From a virus (Duplodnaviria > Heunggongvirae > Uroviricota > Caudoviricetes), in IMG/VR virus record IMGVR_UViG_2718218098_000003: 51,596 nucleotides of DNA, one strand, 5' to 3'. A program made the position numbers and the translations under genes. Shown piece by piece: positions 6,873-25,130 of this stretch. Position 1 is the stretch's first letter. Each line of letters opens with the position of its first letter. A model generated the notes under the pieces. That model worked only from the letters and a program-made list of their open reading frames with translations, made no database searches and was not told where the DNA came from.

Positions 6873-7401
6873 AATTATCTCCATTTTTACAAATGAATTT
6901 TGTCGATGCGGTGCCTGGTGCCTCCAGGTGACGTTAACCAGTTAACAATTAACGCCGGAATACAGGGACCCGCCTGCAAGTACCTACCCATAAGTATTGA
7001 TACGGAGAACAAATGGCCTTTTAACTGTTCCGCGTGCGCTTAGCCGCATTCACCGCATCACAAAATTCACTTTAAAAAGGGCGGACATCAGCCAGCAATG
7101 AAACTGATGCCGCCAAAAGGTAATCAACATGGGTTGTTGCAGCGGGGTTGTCACTTAAGCGTATGGTCAGCCTGACAACCCGGTGTTATCTCGAGGAAAG
7201 GATAGCCTCGCCATACTTACCGCCGCGCCATTTCGCGGATTGCCACAACCGGAAGCGCACGGTCGAAGAAATTTAACGACAAGCCTTCTAAGGGAAAAAC
7301 ACCTCCTCCGTGCGCTTTCGTGTTGTGCGCCTGTCTTTTTTTACCACTTCAGGCTCGGTGGTATACTGGAGTTCTCACACAACCAGTAATAAGGTATTCC
7401 G

Positions 7402-15812: not shown

Positions 15813-15899
15813 AAACGGTTTGCGGGAAAAGGAGAGTTAAGTAGAATTGCTGCGGGTGCTTGAGGCTATCTGCCTCAGGCATGAACACCAACGGCAGAT

Positions 15900-15990
15900 A
15901 GAGAAAAGCCCCAGTTAACATTACGCGTCTTGCAGGACGCTTAACATTAATCTGAGGCCCAATCTATGTCTCACAAATGTAGGTTAGCCT
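15900..15990 (-). ncRNA. Candidate Sok-type antisense RNA region (not delimited)
   Basis: Placement inferred from hok/sok architecture; no promoter or terminator resolved. Confidence 0.2.
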
Positions 15991-16022
15991 CTTACGTGCC
16001 GAAAGGCAAGGAGAAGCAGGCT

Positions 16023-16178
16023 ATGAAGCAGCAAAAGGCGATGTTAATCGCCCTGATCGTCATCTGTTTAACCGTCATAGTGACGGCACTGGTAACGAGG
16101 AAAGACCTCTGCGAGGTACGAATCCGAACCGGCCAGACGGAGGTCGCTGTCTTCACAGCTTACGAACCTGAGGAGTAA
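16023..16178 (+). CDS. hok: Hok/Gef-family type I toxin (HokD/RelF-like)
   Basis: 51-aa MKQQKAMLIALIVICLTVIVTALVTRKDLCEVRIRTGQTEVAVFTAYEPEE; SD aaggag; in-frame upstream extension from 15966 (mok-like). Confidence 0.85.
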   Translation: MKQQKAMLIALIVICLTVIVTALVTRKDLCEVRIRTGQTEVAVFTAYEPEE

Positions 16179-18177: not shown

Positions 18178-18467
18178 TGGTGAATTTACGTAAAGCGGCT
18201 AAAGGCCAGATGTGCCAGATCAGAATCCCTGGCTACTGCAATCACAATCCCGAAACCTCTGTGCTGGCGCATTACAGGCTGGCGGGGACGTGCGGAACAG
18301 CGACAAAACCACACGATATGCAGGCGGCGATAGCCTGTAGCTCATGCCACGATCTAATCGACGGGCGGGTAAAAACCAGCGATTACACCAAAGAAGAATT
18401 GCGCCTGATGCATGCTGAAGGGGTTTTTCGCACACAAGAAATCTGGAGAAAGGAAGGTCATTTATGA
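18177..18467 (+). CDS. YbcO-like putative nuclease (DUF1364), Cys-rich
   Basis: 96 aa, CQIRIPGYCNHNPETSVLAHY...CSSCHDLIDG. Confidence 0.55.
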   Translation: MVNLRKAAKGQMCQIRIPGYCNHNPETSVLAHYRLAGTCGTATKPHDMQAAIACSSCHDLIDGRVKTSDYTKEELRLMHAEGVFRTQEIWRKEGHL

Positions 18468-19006
18468 TTTACCCAACGAATACAGGAAAAAGCGGAGAAC
18501 ACCTTCGCCTCACCACGCTGGAAAGTGTCTGGATTCAGGGAAAACTACGTATGTGGGGGCGCTGGTCGTATATTGGCGGTGGCAGGTCAGGGAATATGTT
18601 CAATCAGTTGTTGGCATCCAAAAAACTGACGAAAACAGCCATTAATGAAGCCTTGCGCAGAATGAAAAAAGCGGGAATAGAGAAAGCTGAGCTGGAAGCG
18701 TTTTTGCGAGAGATGATCAACGGCAAGCAAAAGAGCTGGCTGGCGCATTGTACTGATGCAGAGGCGTTATGTATTGATCGAGTCATAAGTGAGGTGCTGG
18801 CAGAGCATCCAGGATTGATTTGCATTCTCCGGCAATGCTATGAAGGGCGGGGGATGACTAAGCGCAAAATGGCTGAATTGCTAAATGATGCACACCCAGA
18901 GTGGTGTTTTAGCACATGCGAAAAGCGAATTGCTAATTGGTTGGCCGTTGCTGAGTATGCGCTATACATTCCTATGCGAGAATCATTCGCTCAAAAAACG
19001 GCTTGA
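18464..19006 (+). CDS. Late-gene antiterminator Q (phage 82/933W-type family)
   Basis: 180 aa with RMWGRWSYIGGG near the N-terminus (WGxW motif recalled from Q proteins); located immediately upstream of the tRNA cluster and lysis genes. Confidence 0.55.
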   Translation: MIYPTNTGKSGEHLRLTTLESVWIQGKLRMWGRWSYIGGGRSGNMFNQLLASKKLTKTAINEALRRMKKAGIEKAELEAFLREMINGKQKSWLAHCTDAEALCIDRVISEVLAEHPGLICILRQCYEGRGMTKRKMAELLNDAHPEWCFSTCEKRIANWLAVAEYALYIPMRESFAQKTA

Positions 19007-19090
19007 TTTTTTACGCATAAACTGCTTCAATTCCGGTACGCTTCGCAAAGCTGTATCGCGAGGCGAACCAAGCGCATGAACTTTACCAGA

Positions 19091-19113
19091 ACCCGCCATT
19101 GAGCGGGTTTTTG
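19091..19113 (+). terminator. Intrinsic terminator downstream of Q (candidate tR')
   Basis: acccgccattgagcgggttttt. Confidence 0.45.
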
Positions 19114-19194
19114 CGCCACTTATCTCGGATAAACACGGTGAATGCGCTGGTGGAGGAGGTAAGGGTAATTTTTTACCAGTGGATTTTTGAACGC

Positions 19195-19223
19195 TTGCAA
19201 CATTGATTTCGTAACGTTATTAT
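19195..19223 (+). promoter_or_regulatory. Sigma-70-like promoter upstream of the tRNA cluster
   Basis: -35 ttgcaa, 17-bp spacer, -10 tattat, ~10 bp before first tRNA. Confidence 0.5.
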
Positions 19224-19232
19224 CCTGCGCTC

Positions 19233-19307
19233 GGCCCTTTAGCTCAGTGGTGAGAGCGAGCGACTCATAATCGCCAGGTCGCTGGTTCAAATCCAGCAAG
19301 GGCCACC
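19233..19307 (+). tRNA. tRNA-Ile (anticodon CAU, lysidine-type; ileX/ileZ-like)
   Basis: Cloverleaf read by hand; anticodon loop ctCATaa; close to recalled E. coli ileX. Confidence 0.8.
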
Positions 19308-19309
19308 TG

Positions 19310-19386
19310 TCGTCACTAGCTCACCTGGAAAGAGCATCAACCTTCTAAGTTGAGCGTACGAGGTTCGAGTCCTCGGTGGCGGTCCA
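19310..19386 (+). tRNA. tRNA-Arg (anticodon UCU)
   Basis: Anticodon loop ctTCTaa, T-loop ttcgagt, CCA encoded. Confidence 0.65.
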
Positions 19387-19388
19387 GT

Positions 19389-19464
<76 letters not shown>

Positions 19465-19467
19465 TAT

Positions 19468-19542
<75 letters not shown>

Positions 19543-20313
19543 GCATTTGAAACAAGCCTTATTGTATTGCGGCACTGGCGCATTTTTTTATTACGTGGGA
19601 GCAGGTTGTTTTGAAAAAGCATTCTGTTCTCTGGCTATGATTTGAGGCCGGGTGTAGCCTCAGTGCTGATTTTTTACGGCAGCAGAATGGTGCATTATCG
19701 GTGGAGATTTTGTATTTCCTGGCAGGGGCGGTGATGCATCATTTTGGTGTTGTAAAAGCACCGCAGAGGCGTTCCTCAGGGCGAGGGTGGTTTAAATAGT
19801 CGGTTTAGCGGGAAACCACAGTATCCATACAGCACGGAATACTTCGGGAGATACCCGACGCCTCGGTTTACTATAATAAAGACGAAGCATCCTTTGTATT
19901 GACAAACCGCCTGCTTAGACGGTTCTTTTTTGGCTGGTTTATTGTATGCCAAATCATTATTGAAAGGACTGTATTAATAACAAAATCCGAAATAATATGC
20001 CTGCATATTGTTAGTTTTCTTATGCTTTTTGTATATTGCTGCACCGCAGCCCCCCCTGCAACGAAAGTTGTATGATGAATAATTTTTATTTTTTCCTTTT
20101 CCAGTCATCTGAGGATGCTGGCTTCTTTTAGCTCCGGCCCGACAATACGGGGATATCACGTCAGGGGATGAAGGAATTAATTGCGTTGCCGGGGAAGCAT
20201 CGTCAGCTTTTTTAAGATAACTCCTGTGTGTTATGTGCATAAATGCTACAAACTCCACATTTTATGTGGTTGGGAGTTGCCGGGCGCGCAGTGAGTTTGC
20301 TAAGAAAACTCCT

Positions 20314-20415
20314 GCATGGTGAATCCCCCTGTGCGGTGGGGTGATACCATTAACTTTTTTGTCGCCGACAGGTATCACGAACGTTTTGTTCACCGGGAGG
20401 CACCCGGCACCATGC
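20314..20415 (+). other. Structured repeat element copy A (conserved 5' and 3' boxes, variable internal helix)
   Basis: gcatggtgaatccccctgtgcggtgggg...gtgatacc/ggtatcac...caccgggaggcacccggcaccatgc. Confidence 0.6.
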
Positions 20416-20580
20416 ACTTCAATAGATTCTCTCCACATTATTGATATTCTTTCAGAATATCCCACACAGACTTTGTGTAAATGTTAACGAATGTGCGTTT
20501 TATTTGATCTAATCCGCTGTTTGAGCGTTCAAAACAACGGTATATGTAATCCTTTACTATATGACATATTGTGAGGAAAA

Positions 20581-21009
20581 ATGGGTTTTCGTAGCGCATC
20601 AACTCTTACGTTGATTGCTGGTGGGATTATTGTCGGATGCACTGATGCTGTGTCGACAAATTATTACGACCGGGCATCATATTACTCCGATAAATCAACA
20701 GAGACACAGTATGTGAGTTCATCTGAACGTACTACTGATGTTAGTGAAGATATCCGTCAGTATGCCCATCAAATCAAGAACGCCATCGAAAAACAGTTCG
20801 GGGATGCGAGTAAGTATTCAGGAAAAGAGTGTACGCTTAGCATGCATATGGCCCCGAATGGCCTTCTACTGGAGGTTAAAAGAGAAAGTGGAGACCTCGA
20901 TTTATGTCGTGAAGCGATGAATGCGATAAAGAATGCTGATATACCAGCGCCGCCGTCTCCGGAAGTATATAAAGTATTTCACAATGGAGTGCTGGATTTT
21001 AAACCGTGA
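20581..21009 (+). CDS. Lipoprotein with TolA C-terminal (domain III)-like domain
   Basis: 142 aa; lipobox IIVGC after MGFRSASTLTLIAGG; C-terminus YAHQIKNAIEKQFGDASKYSGKECTL...EVYKVFHNGVLDFKP resembles recalled TolA C-terminus; SD gagga. Confidence 0.65.
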   Translation: MGFRSASTLTLIAGGIIVGCTDAVSTNYYDRASYYSDKSTETQYVSSSERTTDVSEDIRQYAHQIKNAIEKQFGDASKYSGKECTLSMHMAPNGLLLEVKRESGDLDLCREAMNAIKNADIPAPPSPEVYKVFHNGVLDFKP

Positions 21010-21207
21010 TTCTACATCTTTGCAGTAAACAATAATCATAATTGCATGTTTTTTCTGTGGTGGGGTATTTGGCTTCTGTTGCCTGCGATGTATTGTGGAG
21101 CTGGTATCAGCCTGCAGAAAATGCACACAGGTGTGAAGTGTTAAATTCCACACAACTCAGAACGCAGAATGTTGTCCTGCTTGCGGGGAGTTTGTTAAAA
21201 GAGTACT

Positions 21208-21329
21208 GCATGGTGAATCCTCATGAGCGGAGGGGCATAATGACAGATGTTTGGTCGCGTTATCGTATAGGCAAGTTGCGGATTCTGTCTGGTCATTGCA
21301 GAATTCACCGGGAGGCACCCGGCACCATG
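21208..21329 (+). other. Structured repeat element copy B
   Basis: gcatggtgaatcctcatgagcggagggg...aatgac/gtcatt...caccgggaggcacccggcaccatg. Confidence 0.6.
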
Positions 21330-21460
21330 TATTTTCAATATTTTATTGATTATTCTCTTTTTCGGAATACTCTGGTTATGTTTTCCTGTAACTGATAATT
21401 AAATCACATTTTGTGTAAATGTATATTGTCTGAACGGGATAAGTTCAGTATCTTCTGAAT

Positions 21461-21584
21461 GTATGGCGAATCCCCCTGTGCGGCGGGGCGTACTGATTTA
21501 AGTAGTCATCCAAGAATGCAGCTGAATGAAAACGCGCTCCATATTAATCAGTGGTGGAGCACCGGGAGGCACCCGGCGCCATAC
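21461..21584 (+). other. Structured repeat element copy C (compensatory changes in closing helix)
   Basis: gtatggcgaatccccctgtgcggcgggg...actgatt/aatcagt...caccgggaggcacccggcgccatac. Confidence 0.6.
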
Positions 21585-21610
21585 CGATGATGAAAATAAA
21601 TGCGTCCATC

Positions 21611-21636
21611 AGCCCCTCTCCGGAGGGGCTTTTTTA
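21611..21636 (+). terminator. Intrinsic terminator
   Basis: agcccctctccggaggggcttttt. Confidence 0.65.
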
Positions 21637-21641
21637 TGGGC

Positions 21642-21672
21642 AAAAAAAGCCCGCTACGAATGGTAACGGGCT
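21642..21672 (-). terminator. Minus-strand intrinsic terminator (back-to-back with 21611-21636)
   Basis: Plus strand aaaaaaagcccgctacgaatggtaacgggct. Confidence 0.45.
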
Positions 21673-21817
21673 GCACAAAATAACAAAATGTGAAGTATTC
21701 TAATCAGCCGCTGAATAATACCCGACAGTAATTAATCTGTGCAACGGCGCTTTTTCCCGCCTTGCAGGCACCGACTCTCTCATTTGATTTAACGCATTAT
21801 CCCGTCCGGGAGGGTTC

Positions 21818-22399
21818 ATGACATTTAAATATTATGATGTGGTTTCGGCCAGAACAACTGATGAATTAAAGCGGAAACTGAACGAAAAAATCCGTGAAGG
21901 ATGGCAGCCTTATGAAACAATATCTGTTTCATCTGTGAGTGGTACTGAAGACATATATCATCAGCCAGTTGCTGCTGAGGGGGAGGTGAGTACGCCGGTG
22001 ATACGTCCTGATGCAGGTGATGATTCATCTGTGGCTGTCTCCGGATCGCCTGATTATTACTACGTGGTGGTACTGGCGGGGCAGTCAAATGGCATGACCT
22101 ATGGTGAAGGGCTTCCGTTACCGGATTCATTTGACCGCCCGGACCCACGGATTAAGCAACTGGCACGCCGCAGCACGGTCACGCCAGGCGGTACGACGTG
22201 TAAATACAATGACATCATTCCGGCAGACCACTGCCTGCATGATGTGCAGGACATGAGCGGGATAAACCACCCGAAAGCTGACCTGAACAAGGGGCAGTAT
22301 GGTTGTGTGAGTCAGGGGCTGCATATTGCCAAAAAACTGCTGCCTTATATCCCGCAGAATGCCGGGATACTTCTGGTGCCCTGTTGCCGTGGCGGCTGA
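21818..22399 (+). pseudogene. Truncated nanS-p-type sialate O-acetylesterase (N-terminal part only)
   Basis: 193 aa; VVVLAGQSNGMTYGEGLPLP is the start of an SGNH/SASA esterase domain; full-length relatives recalled as >600 aa; SD ggagg. Confidence 0.55.
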
Positions 22400-22475
22400 A
22401 AAAATCAGTGCCGGTCAGTCAGCAGAGCCAAAGTCCACGTCCCTCCCGTAATCACATCTCACAGCGAGAAAAACC

Positions 22476-22781
22476 ATGACAGAAATGAAAAAACTGGTCA
22501 CTGCTGATGCAGTGAGATCTGCGCTGCGCACTGAAGAAGTCCGCGGGACGCTGAAAGCATCTATCCGTAAAACGTTTGAGGCTCAGATTGATGCTGATGT
22601 GGAAGCGATTCTGGATGAGCTTACCGGACCTGCTGAGGGGGCATCTGCGCCACAGGCAGGGGATGGTGAGAATACGGCAGATTCTCCGGTGGAAAACAGC
22701 AGCGAACAACCTGAGGCACAACCCGGTGGTGAGGAACAAGCAAATGATGTTCTGCAGCCGGAACCAGCAACCATGTTGTGA
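22476..22781 (+). CDS. Hypothetical acidic protein upstream of holin
   Basis: 101-aa ORF, acidic Pro/Glu-rich C-terminus. Confidence 0.4.
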   Translation: MTEMKKLVTADAVRSALRTEEVRGTLKASIRKTFEAQIDADVEAILDELTGPAEGASAPQAGDGENTADSPVENSSEQPEAQPGGEEQANDVLQPEPATML

Positions 22782-22858
22782 TACATGACGCACAGGCCAC
22801 CAGCATATCGCGGTGGTCTTTTGTTATCGTGCACTTCCGGTGAACGGGAGGCGGAGAT

Positions 22859-23074
22859 ATGTACCAGATGGAAAAAATCACAACAGGTGTGTCATACACC
22901 ACGTCTGCGGTGGGGACGGGATACTGGTTTCTGCAGTTGCTGGACAGGGTATCCCCGTCTCAGTGGGCGGCAATAGGCGTGCTGGGGAGTCTGCTGTTTG
23001 GTCTGCTGACATACCTGACGAACCTGTATTTCAAAATTAAAGAAGACCGACGCAAGGCGGCGCGGGGAGAGTAG
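22859..23074 (+). CDS. S: Pinholin (phage 21 S-type holin), dual start at 22859 and 22868
   Basis: [71 protein letters not shown] resembles recalled S21. Confidence 0.8.
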
Positions 23075-23077
23075 GTG

Positions 23078-23629
23078 ATGAAAAAACAATACGAACTGGT
23101 TGTTAAAGGGATAAATAATTACGGGGATAAGGTTACTGTTACTGTGAAGCCGGAAGGTGACGGGCAAGCGTCGCTGTTGTCGCAATATGTGGTGATTGAT
23201 CTTGATCGTGTTGAAGGTGCCCCGCTGGAGTGTTACGAAGCTGAGGCGAAAAAGCAGGCGAAGCAGTTTTTCATGGATGTAGCTGCCGGGTTATGTGGAG
23301 GGGATGAGCAGTCGCCGGAAAAGCGCCCCATAATTTTAGAGGCGCAGAATGTGTGGATAACCTACAGAGGAAAACTACCGGGAAGAATTACTGGTTCTCT
23401 GAAGACGCCACCGACGGCATTGCGGTCAGAAAAAGATGATATTGAATCGCTCATTGAAAAACTGGAGGGCAGCGTCGCTGATCTGAATAAAAAATTGTCG
23501 GTGCTGATTCCTTCTGAAGATGAAAAAAAACGCCGCGATGAGCAGTTTGCGGCGTTTTACGATTATTGCATTGAAGTTACTCGCAGGAATTTTGTGAAGA
23601 TCTTTGAGGAGGGTAAATCTCTTCAGTAA
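23078..23629 (+). CDS. Hypothetical protein inserted between holin and endolysin
   Basis: 184 aa; start abuts holin stop; no motif recognised. Confidence 0.45.
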   Translation: MKKQYELVVKGINNYGDKVTVTVKPEGDGQASLLSQYVVIDLDRVEGAPLECYEAEAKKQAKQFFMDVAAGLCGGDEQSPEKRPIILEAQNVWITYRGKLPGRITGSLKTPPTALRSEKDDIESLIEKLEGSVADLNKKLSVLIPSEDEKKRRDEQFAAFYDYCIEVTRRNFVKIFEEGKSLQ

Positions 23630-23837
23630 GCTTAATGGCGGACGCTGCAATTAATTCAGGAAGGTCCGCAAGGCCATCTGTCAGTGGATATGATGAAAAA
23701 TCGGCGGCAGTTCTGTTAAGAAGCGCTTTAACTAATTCCTTTTCCTTTTCCGGCAACAAGTTGATTAGAGCTACGACTGCTTGCCTGAGTGCGATTAAAT
23801 CAGCAAAAGTTTGTTTTGGTAGATTTGTGTAATCCAT
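23577..23837 (-). CDS. Hypothetical small protein, convergent with and overlapping 23078-23629
   Basis: 86 aa from MDYTNLPKQTFADLIALRQ...; SD agaggtg upstream of ATG 23837. Confidence 0.4.
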   Translation of the reverse strand: MDYTNLPKQTFADLIALRQAVVALINLLPEKEKELVKALLNRTAADFSSYPLTDGLADLPELIAASAIKLTEEIYPPQRSSQNSCE

Positions 23838-23951
23838 AGTCACCTCTGTGTTTATCAGATTGACATCCTCCTCCCGCCAGTGCCCATCACTGGCGAGGTA
23901 AGATTTAACATATCCGGGGGATTTGAAGCCGATAAATCCTGATAAATATCC

Positions 23952-24485
23952 ATGAACGTAAAAATCAGATACAGCCTGTCAGCTGCCGTTCTGGCGCTGA
24001 TTGCCGCCAGTGCTCCTGCCCCCGACATTCTCGATCAGTTTCTGGATGAAAAAGAGGGGAATCACACCACTGCATACCGCGATGGCTCCGGCATATGGAC
24101 CATCTGTCGGGGAGCAACGATGGTGGACGGTAAACCTGTTATTCCGGGAATGAAACTGTCGAAGGAAAAATGCGCCCAGGTTAACGCCATTGAGCGTGAT
24201 AAGGCGCTGGCATGGGTGGAGCGCAATATTAAAGTGCCACTGACCGAACCACAGAAAGCGGGTATAGCGTCATTTTGTCCCTATAACATTGGCCCCGGTA
24301 AGTGTCTCCCGTCGACGTTTTATAAGCGGCTTAATGCCGGTGATCGTAAGGGGGCATGCGAGGCGATTCGCTGGTGGATAAAAGATGGTGGGCGCGATTG
24401 CCGCATACGTTCAAATAACTGCTATGGACAGGTTATTCGTCGTGACCAGGAAAGCGCATTAGCCTGTTGGGGGATAGATCAGTGA
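23952..24485 (+). CDS. R: SAR endolysin (T4-lysozyme-type, signal-anchor-release)
   Basis: 177 aa; N-terminal SAR helix [18 protein letters not shown]; lysozyme core resembles recalled R21. Confidence 0.8.
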
Positions 24486-24949
24486 GCAGAGTCGCCGCGA
24501 TTATTTATGCTCTGGTTATCTGCATCATCGTCTGTCTGTTATGGGTGGTTAATCATTACCGTGATAACGCCATCGCCTACAAAGAACAGCGTGATAAAAA
24601 AGTCAGTGAGCTGAAGCAGGCGACCGCCACCATTACTGACATGCAGCAACGCCAGCGTGCTGCTGATGTACTCGATGCTAAATACACGAAGGAGTTGGCT
24701 GATGCGAAAGCTGAAAATGATGCTCTTCGGCGCAAGCTTGATAATGGTGGTCGGGTGCTCGTCAAAGGAAAATGCTCTGTGCCATCCTCAGCCGAAACCT
24801 CCAGCGCCTCCGGCATGGGCAATGATGCCACCGTCGAACTCTCTCCAGTTGCTGGACGAAACGTTCTCGGTATCCGGGACGGAATCATCAGAGACCAGAC
24901 AGCACTGAGAACGCTTCAGGAATATATCAGGACGCAATGCCTTCGATGA
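24482..24949 (+). CDS. Rz: i-spanin Rz
   Basis: GTG start overlapping endolysin stop; N-terminal [21 protein letters not shown] then coiled coil. Confidence 0.75.
24702..24908 (+). CDS. Rz1: o-spanin Rz1 (lipoprotein, embedded in Rz in +1 frame)
   Basis: [22 protein letters not shown] lipobox; Pro-rich [11 protein letters not shown]; SD ggag. Confidence 0.75.
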
Positions 24950-25130
24950 TAGCGATAATTTTACTCATCATCCTTCACATCTGGCTCTGTAGACAGGGTG
25001 TTGATCACTTCTGGAGTGAATCCAGATTAAACATCTCATTGCTGATGCTTGAAGTTGAGCATCTGGCGCGCGGTAAGGGGCTGCGTTGAGATAAGAGCCA
25101 GTCATTACAAATACCAGGATTTAGCCTCGT

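Follow-up and report, generated by a model that had tools for sequence, protein, structure and literature searches.

STnc100 (Rfam RF02076) is listed among the most abundantly annotated bacterial small RNAs, with no function given (PMC9029176). Multiple copies are found in Salmonella LT2, and binding patterns of RpoD and RpoN, obtained by chromatin immunoprecipitation with exonuclease treatment (ChIP-exo), have been shown at their promoter regions (PMC10794520). One STnc100 copy lies 75 nt downstream of stx2B (PMC12370729) and overlaps the Hfq-bound small RNA (sRNA) EcOnc27/sRNA103 (PMC12711010; PMC7873438), and sequence variation at this site, directly after the Shiga toxin 2 genes, has been associated with clinical outcome (PMC12711010). 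Here we analyze a stretch of 51,596 nucleotides from a virus of the Caudoviricetes (IMG/VR record IMGVR_UViG_2718218098_000003; the whole stretch is called the window hereafter) and report that three repeated elements in it, which we name A, B and C, are paralogous members of this prophage RNA family, and that the helices of the family covary throughout, including a pseudoknot.

Two groups of relatives are described in most detail. EcOnc27 was recovered by crosslinking and analysis of cDNA with Hfq (Hfq-CRAC), confirmed by Northern blot and located downstream of stx2B (PMC4104026; PMC7873438; PMC12711010). It is encoded on the late-operon strand, just after the moron stx2B and before the nanS-p and lysis genes (Tree et al. 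2014; Gruber and Sperandio 2015), and belongs to a set of convergent sRNA pairs lying between moron genes and the next phage open reading frame (ORF) in eight Sakai prophages (Tree et al., PMC4104026). PasD1 and PasD2 of enteropathogenic E. coli (EPEC) E2348/69 (Pearl Mizrahi et al. 2021), whose homologue in enterohaemorrhagic E. coli (EHEC) is EcOnc13, consist of a promoter, an RNA that starts at the first helix (P1), a folded core, a single-stranded tail and a terminator. Both are abundant and Northern-confirmed, and their chimeras in RIL-seq (sequencing of RNAs ligated to their interaction partners) map to the 3' tail, which holds the seed UGUGAG (PMC8550237). In a preprint of the Storz laboratory, PasD1/2 and STnc100 are concluded to have a shared ancestor (Zhu, Shabalina and Storz 2026).

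STnc100 copies between the antiterminator and lysis genes

A scan with Rfam 15 matches A, B and C to STnc100 at 80.5, 104.2 and 102.6 bits, respectively, each over model positions 1-206, where the curated gathering score of the family is 47 bits. The sequence-only reading that pointed to these repeats had found no matching RNA family for them; the observation of the repeats was itself correct, and as they belong to an already catalogued family their novelty is low. The consensus helices of STnc100 (the outer helix, the central hairpins and the CCGGG-AGGCA-CCCGG hairpin) are seen in all three cmscan alignments. The terminator forming the 3' end of the model is strong after C and degenerate or absent after A and B, and the 3' part of the model aligns at high posterior probability in copy C only. 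Like other members of the family, A-C are located in a lambdoid prophage with several copies per genome and have helices P1, P2, P4 and P5 and both conserved boxes in common with them; they differ from the model in that A and B are without terminator and in that A has a nested helix where other members form a pseudoknot.

The limits of the three cores were set with a covariance model, R1 (described below), mapped helix by helix (Table 1). All copies are co-oriented on the plus strand and contain the 5' and 3' boxes described for them. The 3' box, CACCGGGAGGCACCCGG, has exactly three occurrences in the window and five when up to three mismatches are allowed, compared with 0.16 expected from shuffles. 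The outer helix P1 pairs TGCATGGTG with CACCATGCA in A, TGCATGGTG with CACCATGTA in B, where one pair is G-U, and TGTATGGCG with CGCCATACC in C. Copy C thus carries the two double substitutions that had been taken as covariation, and pairing is kept in both. The internal complementary pairs are likewise present in all copies (gtgatacc/ggtatcac in A, (t)aatgac/gtcatt(g) in B and (t)actgatt/aatcagt(g) in C), although their description as an internal helix holds for A only: in B and C the 3' strand sits within the loop of the P4 hairpin and the pairing is therefore a pseudoknot. Copy A has neither the pseudoknot topology nor a terminator; its corresponding helix is nested, and its P4 is only a tiny hairpin.

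Single-sequence folding recovers P1, P2, P4 and P5 in A, B and C, with minimum free energies of -44.6 kcal/mol for A (z -3.15) and -47.8 kcal/mol for C (z -2.83). Scores with R1 are 72.1 bits for A, 72.6 bits for B and 67.7 bits for C. Pairwise identity of the copy centres is only 44-58%, which argues that the copies are not a recent tandem duplication. The repeated unit had been drawn too short: a promoter-like site lies upstream of all three copies, and a terminator follows C only.

Table 1. Features of the window, with STnc100 elements first and neighboring genes last.
Feature	Position	Strand	Details
Copy A core	20313-20416	+	104 nt; P1 20313-20321 with 20408-20416; P2 20325-20341; nested helix 20341-20348 with 20371-20378; small P4 hairpin 20379-20391; P5 20393-20407
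Copy B core	21207-21331	+	125 nt; P1 21207-21215 with 21323-21331; P2 21219-21235; pseudoknot 21238-21244 with 21292-21298; P4 21280-21287 with 21299-21306; P5 21308-21322
Copy C core	21460-21585	+	126 nt; P1 21460-21468 with 21577-21585; P2 21472-21488; pseudoknot 21491-21498 with 21546-21553; P4 21536-21542 with 21554-21560; P5 21562-21576
Copy C 3' tail	21586-21637	+	25-nt A/U-rich linker, then intrinsic terminator 21611-21637 (stem-loop 21611-21630 and U tract)
Rfam STnc100 match, A	20284-20457	+	
Rfam STnc100 match, B	21179-21383	+	
Rfam STnc100 match, C	21434-21641	+	
Promoter-like site of A	20277-20306	+	TTGCCG, 18 nt, TAAGAA; ends 6 nt before P1; weak, 7/12 matches
Promoter-like site of B	21172-21201	+	TTGTCC, 18 nt, TAAAAG; ends 5 nt before P1; 8/12 matches
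Promoter-like site of C	21426-21454	+	TTGTCT, 17 nt, TATCTT; ends 5 nt before P1; 8/12 matches
Fourth copy, diverged (type 2)	6905-7059	-	P1 GATGCGGTG/CACCGCATC; P5 CCTGG/CCAGG; pseudoknot CAGTTAA/TTAACTG
DicF-like RNA	7079-7129	-	34.1 bits (Rfam DicF threshold 48); upstream of kilR, not dicB
Q-type gene	18464-19006		DUF1133/Phage_antitermQ
Four tRNA genes	19233-19542		ARAGORN
TolA-like ORF	20581-21009		TolA C-terminal domain
Truncated DUF1737 (nanS-p type) ORF	21818-22399		followed by holin, lysozyme and Rz genes

Window positions 19000-25000 are the late region of a lambdoid prophage, and copies A-C are situated in the moron region of this Rac-like element, after the late antiterminator gene and before the lysis genes. 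The gene context had been read accurately. A TolA C-terminal domain is encoded by the ORF lying between A and B, a truncated DUF1737/nanS-p gene comes next, and the locus as a whole is set between the Q-type gene and tRNAs on one side and the holin gene on the other. Elsewhere in the window are SraC/RyeA with SdsR/RyeB on opposite strands (463-607), the RalA antitoxin RNA (2169-2347) and the sok antitoxin RNA (15854-16028). The presence of SraC/SdsR, RalA, sok and kilR, together with trkG beside a related prophage (ECCWS199; L245), fits a Rac-like prophage.

The conserved ends and the variable paired centre of the copies recall the attC sites of integrons, a likeness that we used as a lead only. 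The sequence-only reading had allowed for a recombination site bracketing gene cassettes, and on such an account the elements would act as DNA, either as folded single strands or as duplex, and exchange gene cassettes between prophages. Copy number and presence do vary among related prophages, which is what this account would expect. The ECCWS199 prophage has copy A and TolA-like genes with the holin gene directly after, without B or C, and in the M3 prophage (L246) copy A is missing and the TolA-like gene is succeeded by B, C and an esterase-type gene of full length. The copies are thus present or absent independently of the TolA-like gene, which accompanies either A alone or B and C alone. 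In ECCWS199, homology to the window stops at the TolA-like stop codon, and in M3 it starts inside the TolA-like gene. Because these breakpoints do not coincide with the elements, the recombination-site account is unsupported, and an integron attC-like cassette site was rejected on the same boundaries. A DNA-level site is further disfavored by the frequent G-U pairs (which are mismatches on the complementary DNA strand), by the single orientation of the copies and by the fact that their relatives are abundant transcripts; G-U pairs and single orientation argue for RNA rather than duplex DNA. We regard cassette exchange at these elements as very improbable.

The block formed by copy A, the TolA-like gene, B and C is not confined to this virus. 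E. coli M8 (NZ_CP019953.1; L124 1496-1623) contains a 100% identical match, with IS200 tnpA and iraM upstream instead of the tRNA genes, and because this upstream context differs, the block occurs in more than one prophage arrangement. An additional STnc100 copy lies upstream in the M8 prophage.

A pseudoknotted fold that covaries across homologues

Homologues were collected by two scans. In IMG/VR, an exact-pattern scan with the 3' box, allowing compensated positions, gave at least 120 loci with at least 128 elements, representing at least 89 distinct cores of 84-155 nt. A scan of one genome per species with a 16-base pattern gave 26 real loci out of 120 among the matches listed, the rest being chance 16-mers in G+C-rich genomes. 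All true copies among these matches came from Enterobacterales, including Citrobacter, Escherichia albertii, Enterobacter, Superficieibacter, Pantoea, Lelliottia and Siccibacter. With gapless or MAFFT alignments, the pseudoknot and P4 did not stay in one register. We built R1, a covariance model of P1, P2, the pseudoknot and P5, from 20 seeds sharing the pseudoknot register, with the variable P3 region removed. Searching with R1 yielded 132 matches of full length from 98 sources, comprising phage contigs and genomes of Enterobacterales, and these reduce to 111 distinct rows.

Every helix covaries over these 111 distinct homologues, far above shuffled and slid controls. In total, 94.6% of helix cells are paired, compared with 72.5% in shuffles and 35-47% with slid partners, the observed pairing being somewhat inflated as the alignment was fitted to the structure. 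Double changes account for 644 cells versus 215 in shuffles, and none of 500 shuffles reaches the observed values. The pseudoknot is paired in 89.7% of cells and shows at least four Watson-Crick pair types at each of its positions. The proposal that the copies preserve a selected RNA fold is supported by these data.

Tests with swapped partners are independent of the fitting. In an alignment-free search for contiguous helices (a Watson-Crick pair counting 1, a G-U pair 0.5, and a helix score of at least 6 being called), the two pseudoknot strands form a helix in 84% of cognate pairs versus 34% of swapped pairs. For P4, the figures are 59% and 3%, with 77 distinct helices. A duplex-energy test of the pseudoknot with long flanks was significant but noisy (Wilcoxon p = 7e-5, 26 clusters), and the contiguous-helix test was used instead. 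RNAalifold on 24 representatives recovered P1, P2 and P5; of the 19 pairs, 9 show double changes.

The location of the pseudoknot is fixed. Its 5' strand starts 4-6 nt past P2, and its 3' strand, which has a strand of P4 on either side, ends 8-9 nt short of the 3' box. The site is filled by more than 25 sequence pairs that are unrelated to one another. P1 similarly exists in compensated versions, including GATGCGGTG/CACCGCATC, GTTGTGGTG/CACCACAAC and GCATGGTG/CACCATGC, and G-U pairs are frequent in the helices. Invariant or almost so across subfamilies are the AAU following P1, a GCG in the loop of P2, AGGCA as the P5 loop and, in P1, the four pairs on the junction side. Each copy encodes a compact RNA domain in which P1 closes a multi-helix junction and is followed by the AAU linker, P2 and the variable P3 region; except in A, the loop of P4 forms the pseudoknot with the linker after P2, and P5 stacks directly on the 3' strand of P1.

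Other identities for the cores were considered and rejected. A match to a known terminator or to a repetitive extragenic palindromic (REP) family had been named as evidence that would refute the reading; a known family was indeed found in STnc100, whereas the cores are not terminators or REP-type repeats, being five-helix folds with a pseudoknot, and the one terminator present follows copy C outside its core. They are not tRNAs or tmRNAs either: ARAGORN calls only the four true tRNAs upstream, the loop of P5 has 5 nt (AGGCA), a CCA end is lacking, and the only tRNA-like trait is the stacking of P5 on P1. Finally, short ORFs of 42-43 aa start from an ATG in the P1 strands of A and C. These were dismissed because the ATG is not conserved in other subfamilies, whose P1 reads GATGCGGTG, GTTGTGGTG and others.

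Diverged relatives in the window, in K-12 and in EPEC

Three copies had been counted in the window, and all three stand, but a fourth, diverged copy is present on the minus strand. It was found through a 3' box match with two compensating mismatches, and both its P1 and its P5 are compensated, P5 relative to A-C. The Rfam STnc100 model gives it 33.1 bits, below 47, and R1 gives it 88.7 bits. This copy starts 14 nt past the U tract of the DicF-like RNA; about 30 nt separate its end from the start codon of kilR, which was identified by NCBIfam NF008465 (156.6 bits). The 5' part of the DicF-like RNA, corresponding to the seed region in DicF, differs from K-12 DicF.

The fourth copy represents a form that we call type 2, characterized by a different P2, often a CCUGG/CCAGG P5, and no promoter of its own. 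A full type-2 copy is also present in the dicF-dicB spacer of Qin, a prophage of E. coli K-12 MG1655 (NC_000913.3 1,649,454-1,649,581, equal to L121 17455-17582). It scores 34.4 bits with Rfam, again below threshold, and 85 bits with R1. The arrangement is like that of the fourth copy: the element follows the DicF terminator after 14 nt and is itself followed by the ribosome-binding site of a gene for a cell-division inhibitor. From A-C the K-12 element differs in P2 sequence, in its CCUGG/CCAGG P5, in the lack of its own promoter and in P1, which is extended to about 28 bp. The K-12 RefSeq record has no RNA feature annotated in the dicF-dicB spacer, and one dicBF paper that was searched does not mention the element. 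The RNase III site published near dicF lies upstream of DicF and not within the element, and two surveys of RNase III targets contain no data on the dicF-dicB spacer; cleavage at the extended P1 is a prediction.

PasD1 and PasD2 (L122 2761-2860 and L123 2657-2757) have diverged in another way. They keep P1, a shortened P2, the pseudoknot (AAUGAUC/GAUCAUU) and P4, and have lost P5, which accounts for their sub-threshold Rfam scores of 37.7-41.4 bits; R1 gives 32 bits. Three points are additions absent from the family literature cited here, for which no aimed literature search was made: the pseudoknot, the RNA start at P1 and the type-2 subtype.

Transcript boundaries and candidate modes of action

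PasD1 corresponds to NC_011601.1 1060260-1060432, with a 5' end from RNA-seq (Pearl Mizrahi et al., supplementary table). The mapped position falls on the first base of P1, the G of GCATGGTGAATCC, and upstream of it lie TTGACT, 18 nt and TAAAAA. The promoter-like sites of the window have the same geometry. Such sites are enriched at P1 in the family: a sigma-70 type site with at least 8 of 12 matches and ending 4-9 nt before P1 is present in 46% of 102 distinct upstream contexts, compared with 5% at random positions, and some subfamilies are near consensus (e.g., TTGACA, 16 nt, CATAAA). A sigma-54 promoter in the GGCACC repeat was also considered and set aside, its spacing being unfit as judged by eye.

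On the 3' side the family is more varied. Among 103 distinct downstream contexts, a terminator lies within 40 nt in 30, a ribosome-binding site with ATG within 70 nt in 9, another copy within 250 nt in 7, a tRNA gene within 20 nt in 4 and something else in 53. Some copies precede a DicF-like RNA, and in several phage contigs (L046, L047, L049, L091 and L012) arrays of 3-5 copies are interleaved with tRNA genes, some of the cores ending only 6 nt upstream of a tRNA. In the window, a linker and strong terminator follow copy C only and occupy the position of the seed-plus-terminator tail of PasD. The two tails differ, that of PasD being about 60 nt long with the seed UGUGAG and that of copy C being 25 nt long and unrelated in sequence.

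We propose that A-C are STnc100 paralogues working in the manner of sRNAs, a reading that combines family identity, fold, start at P1 and an sRNA at copy C and that we consider, taken as a whole, rather probable. Each copy would be transcribed from its own weak putative sigma-70 type promoter, with the RNA beginning at or near the first base of P1. Copy C would be a complete sRNA gene made of core, 25-nt linker and terminator. Its layout matches that of PasD and EcOnc27, and by analogy with these two it may be an Hfq-associated base-pairing RNA acting via its single-stranded 3' tail, Hfq binding and seed pairing being known for the relatives only. The folded 5' domain would serve as a conserved scaffold, probably shielding the 5' end. 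Copies A and B, lacking terminators, would most likely be 5' domains of longer transcripts, A running into the TolA-like gene and B into C.

The comparison with EcOnc27 is one of position and annotation, not of alignment. Copy C has the same position and, like EcOnc27, a convergent terminator on the opposite strand, while at the window locus the moron is a TolA-like gene instead of stx and the copies number three. On the minus strand at 21641-21743, this convergent terminator (21672-21648) faces the terminator of copy C, and a promoter-like site, TGCACA-17-TATTAT (21743-21715), lies about 40 nt upstream of its stem. This suggests a putative RNA of about 60 nt on the strand antisense to copy C, in the position of the AsxR/AgvB anti-sRNAs of EHEC. 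Whereas EcOnc27 faces a convergent small RNA, the unit near copy C does not match the AsxR or AgvB families, and its identity with either was rejected, as it has no Rfam match even at an E-value of 1. Separately, at 21148-21195, in the 3' untranslated region of the TolA-like gene, a CA-rich stretch, ccacacaactca, is similar to CACAACA, which Tree et al. quote as the target consensus of GcvB, and just precedes a weak hairpin and U-rich run (21175-21188) overlapping the promoter-like site of copy B.

A typical base-pairing sRNA is most conserved in its seed. Several observations weigh against the sRNA-type mechanism, and the first is that the conserved parts of STnc100 are instead loops and junctions of the structure (AAU, GCG in the loop of P2 and AGGCA in that of P5), suggesting a specific partner beyond the Hfq model. 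A terminator within 40 nt is found in only about a third of the family, the others preceding a tRNA gene, a DicF-like RNA, an ORF or another copy; as most members have no nearby terminator, the conserved unit is the core and not an Hfq-type sRNA. The promoter-like sites of A, B and C are weak (7-8 of 12 matches, with poor -10 hexamers), and both these promoters and a transcription start at P1 in the window are predicted from the DNA letters. The properties of PasD are carried over to the window copies by inference, since PasD is without P5 and falls below the Rfam threshold.

These points lead to the possibility that the core is the functional RNA itself, with a specific conserved partner (protein or RNA), and that the Hfq-binding tail is an add-on. 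The core would become a discrete particle through its own promoter and terminator, through RNase P where a tRNA lies 6 nt downstream, or through RNase III acting on an extended P1, and it could serve as a decoy, as a processing substrate or cofactor, or in a function new for phage RNAs; the unannotated K-12 dicF-dicB copy would be included. Its fold would be loosely tRNA-like, with P5 on P1 as the T arm on the acceptor stem and P2 placed as the D arm. The invariant loops and junctions and the covarying pseudoknot, kept across subfamilies with unrelated centres, are in line with such a particle, as are the many contexts (most of them) without terminator. So are the arrays of 3-5 copies among tRNA genes, where the spacing of 6 nt means that RNase P would define the 3' side of some cores, and the P1 of type 2, whose approximately 28 bp are of sufficient length for RNase III. 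Yet such a partner is hypothetical, and the tRNA likeness goes only so far, with ARAGORN not calling the copies as tRNAs, a 5-nt AGGCA loop that is not a T loop and no CCA end. PasD, moreover, is abundant, Hfq-associated and rich in RIL-seq partners despite the loss of P5. Cleavage by RNase P or RNase III at the borders is a prediction, and the RNase III site published near dicF lies upstream of DicF. We hold the idea of a core acting in its own right as tentative.

That all copies are intergenic and co-oriented with their operon could also mean that they act in cis, as punctuation in the Q-antiterminated late transcript and, for the fourth copy, in the early-left transcript. They would block exonucleases or direct endonucleolytic processing and so give the moron genes a separate stability. 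The fourth copy, promoterless and placed between the DicF-like RNA and the ribosome-binding site of kilR, suits such a role. Simple hairpins suffice as stabilizers, however, and a pseudoknotted five-helix fold with invariant loops exceeds that need; a promoter-like site is fixed at P1 in about half of the contexts and PasD starts there, so that transcription units fit better. We consider a cis role unlikely as the explanation of the family. Neither it nor an autonomous core is mutually exclusive with the sRNA-type mechanism that we propose. In phage HK022, put-type antiterminators are nascent RNAs just downstream of an early promoter that make RNA polymerase read through terminators. Equating the STnc100 elements with these is opposed by the finding that PasD and units of the copy C type terminate 25-60 nt past the core and that PasD accumulates as an RNA of 172-173 nt.

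For the window, the outcome is mainly a corrected annotation, with three STnc100 genes and one distant relative. For the family, the conserved unit is a covarying pseudoknotted fold, and the RNAs appear to begin exactly at its first helix. The pseudoknot, the start at P1 and the type-2 copies in the dicF-dicB and dicF-kilR spacers, including that of K-12, make these proposals testable with structure-guided mutants in a tractable strain. If the core does act in its own right, it would constitute a separate class of compact pseudoknotted RNA in enterobacterial lambdoid phages, present in several diverged copies and matured by varied routes.

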